Source of the DNA: Escherichia coli
Lineage (GTDB): Bacteria > Pseudomonadota > Gammaproteobacteria > Enterobacterales > Enterobacteriaceae
Assembly (NCBI RefSeq): GCF_009931435.1
Contig: NZ_CP043414.1
Direction: 5' to 3' (one strand)
DNA: 64,000 nucleotides
Below, piece after piece: positions 32,500 to 36,925 of this stretch. Position 1 is the stretch's first letter; each line of letters starts with the position of its first letter. The translations under genes and the position numbers were made by a program. The notes below the pieces were generated by a model. The model did no database searches. It worked only from the letters and a program-made list of their open reading frames with translations, and had not been told where the DNA came from.

Positions 32500-32625
32500 A
32501 TCAAACCATCACCAGCGATAACTCTTTGCCAAGCGCCTTAGCCGCAAGCTGGACGGCGTCGATTTTTGTCGCATGGTGCAAGTTAAATAAGCGCGTAATT
32601 TCCTGTTTAGGTTTGCCTAATATCA
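32500..32625 (-). pseudogene. hicB: hicB antitoxin 3' fragment (about 40 C-terminal codons) with a 1-nt frameshift
   Basis: Reverse translation gives ...LHHATKIDAVQLAAKALGKELSLVMV*, and GKPKQEITRLFN in the adjacent frame; one extra A in caaAgtt shifts the frame. Confidence 0.65.
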
Positions 32626-32656
32626 TGTACCCACAATAACACGAGGGGGTACAACA

Positions 32657-32827
32657 ATGAACATCGGTAAAGCAATCATCAACTACGCAGCGCGTCGCAA
32701 CATGGACATTACCTGATTGACGATGAGACCGTGGCGTTCTGGGAAGCGGATAACGATTGTGAATGGATGTTCTCCTACATGATTGGTAATGATGGTTTCC
32801 TCCACTTTAAAGGCAATGTGTATCTGC
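32657..32827 (+). pseudogene. 5' part of a small unknown gene, interrupted by the IS element and carrying an internal frame shift
   Basis: Strong SD (ACGAGGGGG) and ATG at 32657 encode MNIGKAIINYAARRNMDIT then a stop; the +2 frame continues ...LIDDETVAFWEADNDCEWMFSYMIGNDGFLHFKGNVYL up to the IS boundary. Confidence 0.5.
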
Positions 32828-32835
32828 TGTAGTGG

Positions 32836-33656
32836 TCAACAAAAATTGGCCACGGCTTTAGAGTTTTTCCAGAACAATCGTTCTGATTCATTCGGCGTCA
32901 AACCACCGTTATATTGATGAGGTCTGAGCTGGCTGTAATATCCCGTGATGTAGTTTGTTATCGCTGCGCTGGCTTCGCTAAAATTAGCGTATCCATTATC
33001 TGGTACCCACTCCGTTTTCAGGCTTCTAAAAAAACGTTCCATCGGGCTGTTATCCCAGCAATTTCCCCGGCGACTCAGGCTTTGTTTTATCTGATATCTC
33101 CACAGTAACTGTCTGAAATTTCTGCTGGTATAGTGGCTCCCTTGATCCGAGTGATACAGCAAATTAGCGGGCTTTCCTCGCGCTTCCCAGGCCATGGACA
33201 GCGCTTTCGTTGTCAGTGCAGAGTCCGGGAAAAATGACATCGCCCAGCCAACCGGTTTACGGGAAAACAGATCAAGCACAACGGCTAAATAAGCCCAACG
33301 TTTACCCGTCCAGATATAAGTCACATCGCCACACCAGACCTGATTAGGCTCTGTTACTGCAAACACTGGCGTTCAAGATAATTGGGGATCTCTACGTGTT
33401 CCGTAGACGCCTTCTTATATCGATGGCCAGGCTGCTGACAGCTGATGAGATTAAGTTCTTTCATCAGCTTTGTTGCTCGCCAGCGCCTCAGTTTTACGCC
33501 TTTAGTTGTGACCATCGCGGCAATATTACGTGCACCTGCGGAACCATTACTTTCGCGATAGCTTTCACGAACAAGACTGAGTAATGACACGCGCGCGACA
33601 TCAGGCTTCTTTGGCTGCCGCCAGTATTTATAGCTGCTGCGATGAACCCCAAACAC
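32836..33656 (-). pseudogene. IS3-family transposase OrfB (DDE integrase domain), split by an extra frameshift near 33354-33366
   Basis: Two overlapping ORFs (33354-33656 and 32836-33366) in different frames together cover the DDE domain. Confidence 0.7.
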
Positions 33657-33700
33657 GTTGCATACAACGGCAACAGGAAACCGCGCCCTGAGTTTCTCAA

Positions 33701-34012
33701 CTAATGAGAACTGTTCAGGGAGTCTGACATCAAGAGCGCGGTAGCCTTTTTTAATATATCCCTTTCCATTTCAACGCGTTGAAGTCTTTTCTTCAGCTCG
33801 CGTATTTCAATCTGCTCAGGCGTCATTGGTGAAGCTGTGGGGGATTTTCCCGCTCGTTCCTCTTTCAACTGGCGGACCCACTTATCCATCGTGGATTTAC
33901 CGACATTCATTGCCGTAGCAGCGGCTGCAACCGTGTAATGCTGATCGAGTACAAGCTGGGCAGCTTCGAGGCGAAACTCTGGGCTAAAATTACGTCTGTT
34001 ACGTCCGGTCAT
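33701..34012 (-). CDS. IS3-family transposase OrfA (HTH, leucine-zipper-like)
   Basis: 103 aa, [38 protein letters not shown]...; similar to IS911 OrfA. Confidence 0.85.
33746..33752 (-). promoter_or_regulatory. Programmed -1 ribosomal frameshift heptamer (A AAA AAG) of the IS3-family element
   Basis: Reverse complement of cttttttt near the end of orfA; classic IS3-family slippery site. Confidence 0.6.
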
Positions 34013-34078
34013 AATGTCACCTGTTTTTGACTATGAGGCGATGATATCACCTCTATTCAGGTGGCCAAATTCAGTGTG

Positions 34079-34265
34079 CCACTACAGTATGGCTAAGATG
34101 GAATCAGAGATTAAATCACTTAAAGCTGATAACGCCGCATTACGAAAGAGTTTAAAACTGATTGATGAGACTAATGCGGTTATGATGGATCATGTATTCC
34201 CTGAGTGGCGAAATGAAACTAAACCTACACAATATAAGAAACCTACACTTCGAGTGGTTGCATAA
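34079..34265 (+). pseudogene. 3' part of the IS-interrupted small gene (coiled-coil tail)
   Basis: The frame continues across the IS: ...GNVYL | RMAKMESEIKSLKADNAALRKSLKLIDETNAVMMDHVFPEWRNETKPTQYKKPTLRVVA*. Confidence 0.45.
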
Positions 34266-34547: not shown

Positions 34548-34721
34548 TTATTTAGCATCCTTTTTACAGCAACTAAAAAGAATAAACAGGATTAAACATC
34601 CCCAGCCGTAAGGTGTACCAATTAGAAATTTGAAAAACACCACCATCGATATAAAAATCAATTTAATGCCAGCGACGATAGTCAAAAACAGCAGAGTAGC
34701 AAAGTAGACAAAAAGATCCAT
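34548..34721 (-). CDS. Small hydrophobic membrane peptide (57 aa)
   Basis: ATG with GAGG 9 nt upstream; MDLFVYFATLLFLTIVAGIKLIFISMVVFFKFLIGTPYGWGCLILFILFSCCKKDAK; below the ORF-track cutoff. Confidence 0.4.
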   Translation of the reverse strand: MDLFVYFATLLFLTIVAGIKLIFISMVVFFKFLIGTPYGWGCLILFILFSCCKKDAK

Positions 34722-34770
34722 AGATAATCCTCTTTGAAAACGACCATCATCTATAGTTCAATTCATCGAT

Positions 34771-34953
34771 TTAATTAATGATACTTGAAAGCGTTACACA
34801 CAGCAGAAATGCCAATATGTGCCATGAATATACGATAGTTAATCCTACAGTAAGACAAATCAAAAATTCAACCATAGGTAAATCCTCAAATAAGAAAAAG
34901 GTTAGCGGGGGGTGATTCCCCCCGTAGACGTTGACCAGCTCAACATCTTTCAT
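34771..34953 (-). CDS. Small hydrophobic peptide (60 aa; internal start would give 34 aa: MVEFLICLTVGLTIVYSWHILAFLLCVTLSSIIN)
   Basis: ORF with a hydrophobic C-terminal segment; the internal ATG has GAGGA upstream. Confidence 0.35.
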   Translation of the reverse strand: MKDVELVNVYGGNHPPLTFFLFEDLPMVEFLICLTVGLTIVYSWHILAFLLCVTLSSIIN

Positions 34954-34973
34954 ACATTTATTTATAACGCGTT

Positions 34974-35540
34974 TTAAGACACATCAAATTCATCGTCTTC
35001 TTCTGGTTCTTGTTCCGGTTCATCCATTAATGGTAATTCTTCTTCCTCGTCTTCTCCCAAATCAGCATTTTCGAACAAGTCCCCTACTTCATTTAAACGA
35101 AGCTCGATGATCTCCCTTAGCTTATTCTTCAATGTTTTCTGATCAGTGGCGGATTCTAAAATTTCTAGGGCATCGATTGTGGCGATCTGCAAGATAGTCT
35201 GCTTCACCTTCCCACAATATTCAGCTAGTTCCTGTTCTACATACCCGACCGGAATCAGGAGATTCATTGCTTCCTGGTTCTCTCGTTCGGCTGCATCTGC
35301 TAATGCTCTCTCACGGCGTAATTTCTCTACGTCGATTTGTTCCTTGATAGAAGTTTCTTTAAGCGGGTTAATGATGTTCTTCAAGACCCAATCACACCCA
35401 GGCTTCGCCGGGACACGTCTTGTATTTGTGTTATAAGGTAGACCCCTTTCTAACCATTTCTTAGCGGCGTTAATTGTATAGCCGTATAAGCGGGAAATTT
35501 CTGTAAGGGTTAATTCTTCTTTCATCCGGTTATCCTCCAT
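34974..35540 (-). CDS. Phage terminase small-subunit (lambda Nu1)-like HTH protein with acidic C-terminal tail
   Basis: 188 aa; N-terminal HTH-like LTLTEISRLYGYTINAAKKWLERGLPY, central EKLRRE coiled-coil segment, C-terminal DEEEELPLMDEPEQEPEEDDEFDVS; resembles the Nu1/TerS layout. Confidence 0.6.
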   Translation of the reverse strand: MEDNRMKEELTLTEISRLYGYTINAAKKWLERGLPYNTNTRRVPAKPGCDWVLKNIINPLKETSIKEQIDVEKLRRERALADAAERENQEAMNLLIPVGYVEQELAEYCGKVKQTILQIATIDALEILESATDQKTLKNKLREIIELRLNEVGDLFENADLGEDEEEELPLMDEPEQEPEEDDEFDVS

Positions 35541-35886
35541 TAAATTTGCGTAAAATTATTTATCTGATCTACGCATTCAGGAGAGCGCCTAAAACGCTTT
35601 CTAACGACATGAAAGATCTAGGCGTGGAAAGGAATTGGCGGGTGTTAATAGTCGCGTAGCGACCGCGCTGGTGGGCTGCACTGCACCTGTTTTGAAATCT
35701 CACACGCACATCAAATACCGGGGTGCCGAAAACTCCCTTTATTTCATCCGCGGAACAGTACCTTTTTAATTTGTCAAGCATTAATTTCTTAATTTAATTA
35801 CTAAATCTCACCCCAATAATTGAAAAAATATCAAAAATCAATAAAGTAAGCATCTAAAAGTCAGTCCATACCAAAAGAGGTATAAA

Positions 35887-36666
35887 ATGAAAAACATTAT
35901 CGCTGCTATCGTGCTTTCTGCTACTGCTTTCGGTGCTGATGCTGCGTCCTTTGATTGCACTAAGGCTATAACCAAATCAGAGAAGTTTATTTGTGCTAAT
36001 GAGTCAATCTCCGCACTGGATTCTAAACTTCATGAAGTATATGTTAAGGCTGTTAAGATTGATCCGTCTCTTAAACAAGAGCAACGCAACTGGAATAAAA
36101 CTGTTCGTGATACAATGATCAATATCGGGCAGATTCAGCCACTGGAGGCTGTATACAACGCTCAAATCCAAAACTTGATGAATGTATTATCTAAAGAAGA
36201 AACCGCGTCAGAGAGCGTTACAGATGATTCTGCAAAGGTTGAAGAAGAACAACCGAAACAGGAAGAAGTAAAGAAACTGAATGTTACCGCGATTTACGCA
36301 TGTACTGCAAAATTTACATGGAAAGTTATCGATGGTGAGGAAACAGAAGCTGTAAAAGATTACTTATACGGAAACAAAGATCATGATGATAAAGGCGGTA
36401 AACTTAAAATCAAACTGGTAGATGATGTTCCTGTGTATTTTGTTTACACCGACAAATATAACGTTTATAAATCACCACTCAAACCAGCTAAAGAAAATCC
36501 AAACGCAATGGAGGGTAAATCCAAACAGGATACTATTGGACGTGTTAACACTTATAACATCTGGGTAAGCAAAAAAGGTGACATGCGTCTTGAAGTTATT
36601 GAACCAAAATATGATTCTGAATATAAACACACTCAATTTGCATGTGACATGGTAGACGCAGAGTAA
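35887..36666 (+). CDS. Secreted protein with N-terminal DUF1311 (LprI-like) domain and unknown C-terminal domain
   Basis: Signal peptide MKNIIAAIVLSATAFGADA; FDCTKAITKSEKFICANESISALDSKLHEVY matches the DUF1311 N-terminal pattern; AT-rich. Confidence 0.65.
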   Translation: MKNIIAAIVLSATAFGADAASFDCTKAITKSEKFICANESISALDSKLHEVYVKAVKIDPSLKQEQRNWNKTVRDTMINIGQIQPLEAVYNAQIQNLMNVLSKEETASESVTDDSAKVEEEQPKQEEVKKLNVTAIYACTAKFTWKVIDGEETEAVKDYLYGNKDHDDKGGKLKIKLVDDVPVYFVYTDKYNVYKSPLKPAKENPNAMEGKSKQDTIGRVNTYNIWVSKKGDMRLEVIEPKYDSEYKHTQFACDMVDAE

Positions 36667-36925
36667 GAGGTGAAATGATGCAATTCAATAGCATGAAGAT
36701 TACTCAAAAATGGTGGGATGCGATGAAAGCTAACCACCAGAACGATATTAATTAAGTAACATTTTAGATATACAGCACCCAGCTAACAGATCACCTTTTA
36801 TGGATTTCATTATAACCCCTTTGATCTGGAAACTATGTTAATTAGTTGATTTCTAAGCCTTGTCCTTGTGATGGGGCTTTTTATTGCAAAATTTTTAGTT
36901 ATTTTGGGTTGACTACATTCGGGTT

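Follow-up and report, generated by a model that had tools for sequence, protein, structure and literature searches.

A 4.3-kb Insert in hicB of Escherichia coli Is Very Probably the Remnant of a Prophage Integrated by a Large Serine Recombinase

Introduction

Prophages that use large serine recombinases include phiC31, Bxb1, and the Listeria phage A118, which is located in comK. The cryptic or "grounded" prophage remnants of E. coli form a second group of well-known elements (DLP12, Rac, Qin, and e14), and the classic remnants found in K-12 derive mostly from lambdoid phages that have tyrosine integrases. The Bacillus phage SPbeta is described as integrating in spsM (PMC5499854). The attachment (att) sites of serine integrases are at most about 50 bp long and consist of inverted repeats around a 2–12-bp identity that holds the crossover (PMC4111918); excision is described as requiring an additional directionality factor (PMC4111918; PMC5737554). 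Here we analyze a 4,311-bp insert in the antitoxin gene hicB, found in a 64,000-nucleotide stretch of E. coli DNA (contig NZ_CP043414.1, assembly GCF_009931435.1; the whole stretch is called the window). The initial annotation of the window suggested the remnant of a non-autonomous transposable or satellite-like element that fitted no named family familiar to its author. Comparison with complete genomes led us to a different identification: the insert is very probably a decayed large serine recombinase prophage, consisting of the two att-bearing ends of a phage of about 36 kb that lost its middle at an insertion sequence (IS).

The locus resembles the phiC31, Bxb1, A118, and SPbeta type in that its intact relatives encode a recombinase with Resolvase, Recombinase, and zinc-ribbon domains; the phage site, attP, is a short, imperfect palindrome whose 2-bp crossover (TT) is itself non-palindromic and which shares minimal identity with the chromosomal site, attB; and integration occurred within a coding sequence with precise, conservative junctions. 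It differs from them in its E. coli host, in its targets (hicB and ycdX), and in having no close deposited phage; furthermore, the window keeps the att scars and one end module only, and the recombination reaction is predicted. With the cryptic E. coli prophages it shares internal deletions, IS insertions, frameshifts, a short remnant with few intact accessory genes, and independent decay at the same att site in several strains. Unlike these, it comes from a serine recombinase phage of an unnamed family and has kept both att half-sites. Phage-inducible chromosomal islands (PICIs), capsid-forming PICIs (cf-PICIs), and P4-like satellites are comparable in their small size and in the presence of a gene like that of the small terminase subunit (TerS) without the large one (TerL), but the insert has none of their hallmark genes and is collinear with prophage ends.

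Results and Discussion

The insert and its intact relatives

The chromosome of E. coli 2020CK-00188 (NZ_ABACVG020000001.1) contains this region at 100% identity. Here, ydcS and ydcR are followed by a 3′ fragment of hicB, then by the insert, a second (middle) fragment of hicB, yncJ, and rlhA. The insert interrupts the 3′ part of hicB and occupies positions 32615–36925 when measured between the crossover TT dinucleotides at 32613–32614 and 36924–36925, so that the limits given in the initial annotation (32618–36925) were essentially exact. In the alignment to K-12, host homology ends at 32617 and restarts at 36918. The 3′ hicB fragment (32501–32614, minus strand), annotated by the PGAP pipeline as partial hicB and aligned to K-12 hicB up to 32617, ends at the crossover TT and constitutes the B arm of the left attachment site, attL. 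The middle fragment (36926–37050, minus strand) is the B′ arm of the right site, attR, and ends at the junction of a 444-bp deletion described below. In silico excision, in which position 32614 was joined to 36926, produced a 540-bp sequence that aligned without gaps, at 97.2% identity, to the empty site of strain AVS0193, which has the same hicA-deleted allele. By this excision the junctions are conservative and precise, with no host bases gained or lost.

A search of 5,426 complete E. coli genomes, in which the part of the insert outside the IS was used as query, found related DNA in 63 of them, in every case in the chromosome. The exact 4.3-kb arrangement occurred solely in the window's own genome among the genomes searched. 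In further E. coli genomes, a tailed prophage of 33–38 kb lies between the same two ends. The prophage of strain 2014EL-1346-6 (locus L003), with a size of 35.8 kb, includes small left-end genes, a gene for a 559-amino acid "recombinase family protein", an endolysin-like metallopeptidase gene, tail tip, tape-measure-sized, and tail tube genes, followed by genes for a 668-amino acid capsid protein, a portal, a gpA-type large terminase, and a Rha regulator. Its right end consists of a TerS-like gene and a gene of the LprI family, as in the window. All four intact relatives compared (L003, L005, L008, and L009) have TerL, portal, capsid, tail tube, and tail tip genes, the endolysin-like gene, and the 559-amino acid recombinase gene between the same ends.

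The window aligns with L003 in two segments. Positions 32001–32827 are 97% identical to L003 5825–6652, and positions 34097–37050 are 92.9% identical to L003 39414–42371. About 32.75 kb of prophage, from L003 6653 to about 39403, is gone from the window, including the virion and lysis genes. The window retains 213 bp from the left end and 2.84 kb from the right end, about 90% of the phage having been lost. Outside the IS, every base of phage origin lines up in order with one or other end of a 36-kb prophage equipped with TerL, portal, capsid, and tail genes of its own.

The recombinase of the intact relatives can be classified as a large serine recombinase because it contains the Resolvase (PF00239, E 6e-14), Recombinase (PF07508, E 4e-7), and zinc-ribbon (Zn_ribbon_recom, PF13408, E 2e-9) domains. 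Its gene lies 1.5 kb from attL and was located at L003 7982–9661, L005 4818–6497, L008 36875–38554, and L009 31611–33290. Fifty-seven genomes, not including the window's own, carry this cognate integrase gene. Since no cognate integrase is found anywhere in the window's genome, the remnant is immobile and unable to excise on its own. The initial annotation was right that the insert is a discrete, formerly mobile element and that it has no integrase; the gene is absent as a result of the 32.75-kb internal deletion at the IS.

Attachment sites and recombinase clades

The phage half of attL, the P′ arm of attP (GCCTAATATCATGTACCCACAATAAC), is located at 32615–32640 and is identical or nearly identical in the prophages found at hicB and ycdX. 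The phage half of attR, at 36898–36925, consists of the P arm (GTTATTTTGGGTTGACTACATTCGGG) and the crossover TT at 36924–36925. Joining the phage halves of attR and attL results in GTTATTTTGGGTTGACTACATTCGGG TT GCC(A/T)AATATCATGTACCCACAATAAC, and across the crossover the predicted attP reads …CATTCGGG TT GCCAAATATCATG…. When the two 26-nucleotide arms are folded about the central TT, 18 of the 26 positions pair without gaps, with an outer motif, GTTATTnTGGGT, and an inner motif, TTnGG. At this pre-specified center the binomial probability of such pairing is about 4.5e-6, and only 4 of 63,946 window positions reach 18/26 or better. In diverged members of the family the pairing is 14–18 of 26, and the outer GTTATTnnGGG and inner TTnGG motifs are kept. 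Both half-sites in the window are intact except for one A-to-T change, which is also found in relatives. The imperfect terminal inverted repeat of the initial annotation is therefore real and above chance; its gapped alignment (ATGTA...CCCA.AATAAC) had caught the outer motif and misplaced the inner part. What looked like terminal inverted repeats are the two halves of the attP of a serine recombinase, its P and P′ arms. The architecture of the dyad fits the published description of serine integrase sites (PMC4111918).

A second integration site was found in strain UTME-9, where nearly the same phage lies inside ycdX, with ends that are 98–99% identical and an attP that is identical over 62 bp. 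The comparison with the empty K-12 sites showed that attP and attB have TTGCC in common at hicB and unambiguously only TT at ycdX, where the empty attB reads ...TTTGGGA TT TCCGGG.... All the junctions that were read, three at hicB and two at ycdX, are at the same nucleotide. The crossover was placed at TT because two independent empty targets, K-12 hicB and K-12 ycdX, and the center of the dyad agree. Since the shared sequence has 2 bp at ycdX and 5 bp at hicB, TTGCC is not a target-site duplication. The initial annotation had proposed looking for identical ends at other sites and for target duplications in related elements. Both comparisons were informative: the same ends are present at a second chromosomal locus, no duplication of fixed length exists, and the ends and the repeat are conserved. 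Among the papers searched, none ties hicB or ycdX to a prophage attachment site. These analyses define attP, attB, and the crossover for an undescribed family of E. coli serine recombinase phages present in about 1% of the complete genomes.

Most carriers among the genomes searched have the prophage at hicB or ycdX, and the clade to which the integrase gene belongs predicted the site in all 42 genomes checked. Genes with at least 96.8% nucleotide identity to that of L003 are associated with hicB (20 genomes), as are those with 90.9–91.9% identity (7 genomes), while the clade with 92.4–94.0% identity was at ycdX in 15 of the 15 genomes with an annotated junction. In the five sequences compared, recombinases of different clades share about 87–93% amino acid identity. 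Alignment of these five recombinases identified 37 substitutions that segregate by site, 30 of which are in residues 196–351, within the Recombinase and zinc-ribbon domains, the two that bind DNA. Closely related recombinases that use the same or nearly the same attP and two chromosomal targets offer natural variation of the kind used in re-targeting serine integrases. That the parent family is a natural case of a serine recombinase switching its attB between hicB and ycdX while keeping its attP, and that at the same time the remnant is not inert and has been kept by selection, is a joint proposal that we make tentatively and consider rather unlikely.

Deletion at the IS element and other decay products

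The IS (32828–34086, minus strand) is a defective 1,259-bp member of the IS3 family that marks the 32.75-kb deletion. It resembles the IS911/ISEc52 group in its TG...CA inverted repeats, its orfA/orfB organization, its A6G slippery site (at 33752), and its size, within the 1.2–1.5 kb range; the terminal repeats are 27 nucleotides long. It is 96.9% identical to an intact plasmid copy, from which it differs by a 2-bp insertion at 33363–33364 that splits orfB. A second departure from the group is the lack of a 3-bp target duplication, since the 3-bp flanks are TGC and GTA. The flanks correspond to L003 6652 and about 39404.

The initial annotation had assumed that the IS split one small gene, but the pieces on its two sides come from two different phage genes. 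The left piece (32658–32827, plus strand) consists of the first 57 codons of a gene that encodes 90 amino acids when intact; it lacks 1 nucleotide after 32714 and breaks off at the IS. Its identity was established by alignment to L003 6481–6753, and the intact homologue matches PHROG 6147 with an E value of 8e-33. The right piece (34087–34265, plus strand) holds the last 58 codons of a WP_001695756-like gene of 80 amino acids and is 88–93% identical in tblastn comparisons to L003 39406–39579 and L005 37562–37735; in L003 this gene starts at 39340. Therefore, the IS unites codon 57 of one gene with about codon 22 of another located 32.75 kb away in intact prophages. The lack of a 3-bp duplication and the origin of the flanks from two genes indicate an IS-associated deletion and not a simple insertion.

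At least four further, independent remnants of the same prophage family were found at hicB, with differing deletion endpoints and IS elements. They are those of strain EC7072022BGR (L010), which is 5.5 kb long and has no IS; of L73 (L011) and PK5074, with 7.1 kb, IS1, and IS3; of EC05 (L012), with ISKpn26; and of PSJ-07, with about 14 kb and IS421. The TerS-like and LprI-like genes are kept in all of them, an observation subject to ascertainment bias because the remnants were found by searching with those very sequences.

Origin of the insert and alternative explanations

The following course of events very probably accounts for the structure of the insert. A temperate tailed phage of about 36 kb would have integrated in the 3′ part of hicB, at that time already a truncated pseudogene without hicA. 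Its large serine recombinase would have exchanged strands at the central TT between an imperfectly palindromic attP of about 54 bp and the chromosomal attB, leaving half of attP at either end of the prophage in inverted orientation, where the halves would look like a terminal inverted repeat. An IS3-family element would later have entered the prophage, and about 32.75 kb, with the recombinase, lysis, tail, head, and TerL genes, would then have been removed by a deletion next to the IS or by recombination of two copies of it. Without recombinase or directionality factor, the remnant is locked in place. The comparisons above establish the collinearity with intact prophages, the att sites and their crossover, the limits of the IS and its lack of a target duplication, and the missing cognate integrase; the order of these events and the mechanism of the deletion are what we infer from the present structure.

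Several points weigh against this interpretation. No close phage genome has been deposited: TerL is at most 44% identical at the amino acid level to that of a deposited phage (DCP80) and the integrase at most 30% (Bcep176, JC1, and Perceval-like phages). The nearest deposited phages being this distant, the viability of the parent phage family is a presumption. The closest intact prophage is only about 93–95% identical over the surviving right end, and the direct parent is thus outside the collection. A single sequence gives no order of events, and an adjacent deletion caused by one IS and recombination between two copies are both compatible with it. Finally, attP was reconstructed from prophage ends and not observed as such; the joined site of the free phage had no exact match among the IMG/VR or JGI metagenome contigs, where only integrated forms were found. 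The IMG/VR contigs that have the left-end gene are trimmed prophages or contain attL at hicB.

Among the alternatives, the one that survives best is a dead prophage that is retained and possibly mobilisable by a superinfecting relative, with the module on the attR side under selection for a function that benefits the host, such as lysogenic conversion or defense. The half-sites are intact apart from the A-to-T change shared with relatives, frameshifts affect the left gene and the IS transposase but have spared the TerS-like and LprI-like open reading frames (ORFs), and the module is kept in five independent remnants. Moreover, the LprI-like gene is shared with lytic Krischvirus phages, and the C-terminal barrel of its product is hypervariable. 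These arguments come from sequence comparisons, and the ascertainment bias already mentioned affects the count of remnants. In addition, the genome has no cognate integrase and 4.3 kb is far under a headful or cos-to-cos length. We regard this explanation as quite improbable.

A satellite of the PICI, cf-PICI, or P4 type, or a remnant of one, whose TerS-like protein would hijack the packaging of a helper, might be suspected from the small size, the TerS-like gene without TerL, the accessory cargo, and the PICI Rpp/TerS structures among the weak fold matches of the TerS-like protein. However, all of the phage DNA left outside the IS corresponds in order to the ends of a full 36-kb prophage, and the intact relatives have no satellite-type integrase, primase/replication, or capsid-redirection gene between these ends. 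The other small versions at hicB differ in their deletion endpoints, as decay products and not a propagating unit would. This explanation was rejected on the collinearity with the full prophage and the lack of satellite hallmark genes in the insert, and its probability is very small. A non-autonomous transposable element with terminal inverted repeats, a 5-bp TTGCC duplication, and a transposase encoded elsewhere can practically be discarded: although imperfect inverted repeats lie at either end, TTGCC flanks the insert on both sides at hicB, and there is no transposase apart from that of the nested IS, ycdX shares TT alone and hence no duplication has a fixed length, insertion is site-specific, with most carriers at one of two sites and all five junctions at the same nucleotide, and the ends belong to a complete prophage whose serine recombinase clade predicts the site. 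Read as the decayed prophage of a serine recombinase phage, the insert is the scar left by a dead prophage and calls for no additional category of mobile element.

The hicB allele

The 444-bp deletion at window 37050/37051 took out hicA and the first 178 nucleotides of hicB, with 1 nucleotide of microhomology. In the alignment to the K-12 hicB region (L004), the sequence jumps from 2687 to 2242 at window 37050, and the missing stretch is L004 2243–2686. Of 40 evenly sampled E. coli genomes, 9 had the identical junction, among them Nissle 1917, and it was also found in AVS0193 (L035), which has no prophage at all. More generally, hicA is altogether absent in 1,172 of the 5,426 genomes. The possibility that the loss of hicA was selected because the phage disrupted the antitoxin gene was considered and rejected, the deletion being a common lineage allele that is also found free of prophage in AVS0193. 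The missing hicA and 5′ part of hicB represent a common lineage deletion that is not connected with the phage.

Another hicA allele, with a 22-bp deletion and annotated as a frameshifted "mRNA interferase", was found in 12 of 60 evenly sampled genomes (about 20%) and in about 8 of 33 lysogens, i.e., without enrichment. This comparison, too, speaks against selection for the loss of hicA by prophage integration.

The secreted LprI-like gene

The LprI-like gene at the attR end (35887–36666, plus strand) is intact and encodes a 259-amino acid protein, which the initial annotation correctly listed as DUF1311-like. It matches PHROG 14799 (E 4e-109), is annotated by PGAP as "lysozyme inhibitor LprI family", and represents a moron of the phage. 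The match to the Pfam LprI family (PF07007) is borderline (E 1e-3, residues 24–76); PF07007 is precomputed for 12 of 21 homologues. The N-terminus resembles a signal peptide. In the AlphaFold2 model a helical N-terminal domain is followed by a disordered acidic linker and an 8-stranded beta-barrel, for which the C-terminal barrels of NHBA, TbpB, and fHbp are weak structural matches (best E 2e-3). The protein may act in the periplasm as a binding protein or an inhibitor.

The first 387 nucleotides of the gene region (window 35881–36267) are 94.6% identical to RB49p262 of the lytic T4-like Krischvirus phages (phage RB49, L007 1501–1887), and the C-terminal half has only distant similarity to it. 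Among 19 homologues, residues 1–110 are almost invariant and the C-terminal domain is hypervariable, swapped among several versions. A 26-amino acid ORF downstream (36675–36755, plus strand) is what is left of a gene related to RB49p261, to whose 5′ end it is homologous; positions 36662–36742 are 82.7% identical to L007 2261–2339. Together, the LprI-like gene and this ORF point to a recent exchange between temperate and virulent coliphages and bring to notice a secreted mosaic gene passed between the two kinds of phage. A terminator-like hairpin at 36855–36887 (plus strand), with a 10-pair stem followed by TTTATTGC, lies after the LprI-like gene. To the idea that the LprI-like protein is a selected lysogenic conversion or anti-phage factor, e.g., a periplasmic inhibitor of the lysozyme or another envelope-acting protein of an incoming phage, which would make the remnant other than inert, we assign a low probability.

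Other genes and signals of the right end

The cargo listed in the initial annotation also included the IS3-family element and the TerS-like protein, both of which were found as described, and two small hydrophobic ORFs, both present, of which only the one with 57 amino acids is kept intact in relatives. That ORF (34548–34721, minus strand) is 91–95% identical in L003, L011, and L012 and had no PHROG or NCBIfam match; it probably encodes a real small membrane protein. The other (34771–34953, minus strand, 60 amino acids) is conserved family-wide in its first 19 residues alone, its reading frame is interrupted in L003, L011, and L012, and in other relatives a different membrane protein, of 94 amino acids, is encoded at the same position. 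Its coding status is doubtful. Between the convergent phage genes are two G+C-rich hairpin terminators (34270–34389; stems at 34270–34289 and 34374–34389), each followed by a T run. A terminator scan found 8 such sites in the scanned region when 2.0 were expected. A search against Rfam gave no RNA family for the insert, nor for the intact prophage L003.

The TerS-like gene (34974–35540, minus strand; PGAP start 35525) is intact and encodes 188 amino acids. The protein matches PHROG 57, "terminase small subunit", over nearly its full length (E 4.4e-13). Its 76 homologues come from E. coli, Salmonella, and Proteus, and some of them are named terminase small subunit. There was no Pfam, NCBIfam, or PDB sequence match and no significant fold match. 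The AlphaFold2 model (pLDDT 74.5) has an N-terminal winged helix-turn-helix followed by long helices, and its fold matches are weak (E 0.2–1), including the DNA-binding domain of lambda gpNu1 (1j9i, E 0.37), MerR-type folds, and the PICI structures mentioned above. In intact phages the gene is 6 kb from TerL. We use the term TerS-like on the basis of PHROG 57 and the annotations of some homologues. Expression of the TerS-like gene, the 57-amino acid membrane ORF, and the secreted LprI-like gene may continue in the remnant.

Upstream of the TerS-like gene is a conserved non-coding stretch of about 240 bp (35541–35778). Nucleotide conservation in all diverged relatives extends from 34265 to 35778 and stops there, and the stretch is a candidate promoter and/or packaging (cos/pac) site. 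The 35,485-bp contig of a related phage (L014, Logan contig SRR31546711_3486) ends within this conserved stretch, 388 bp upstream of the TerS-like gene. This end could be the physical end of the genome (cos) or a mere assembly break at a variable moron.

Variation within the prophage family

Each intact relative has a stretch of 1.26–1.4 kb that is free of annotated genes (L003 36768–38030, L005 34929–36188, L008 4127–5517, and L009 4172–5513). The L003 copy, the sole one scanned, had no ORF longer than 56 amino acids and no Rfam match. The stretch might serve as an origin or a regulatory region, or encode a non-coding RNA.

The cargo located beside the integrase and at the attR end differs among members of the family (L008 33412–36801, L009 29428–31536, H26, and H39) and consists of a DEAD-box helicase with a GIY-YIG nuclease, a PAP2 protein, or LprI-like variants. 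These positions look like moron or defense hot spots. In strain C325 (NZ_CP124819.1) the left end (1052115–1054505) and the right end (846866–849669) are about 205 kb apart and on opposite strands, and the integrase is truncated beside a molybdopterin enzyme gene, an arrangement that may have arisen by a large inversion or rearrangement across the prophage.

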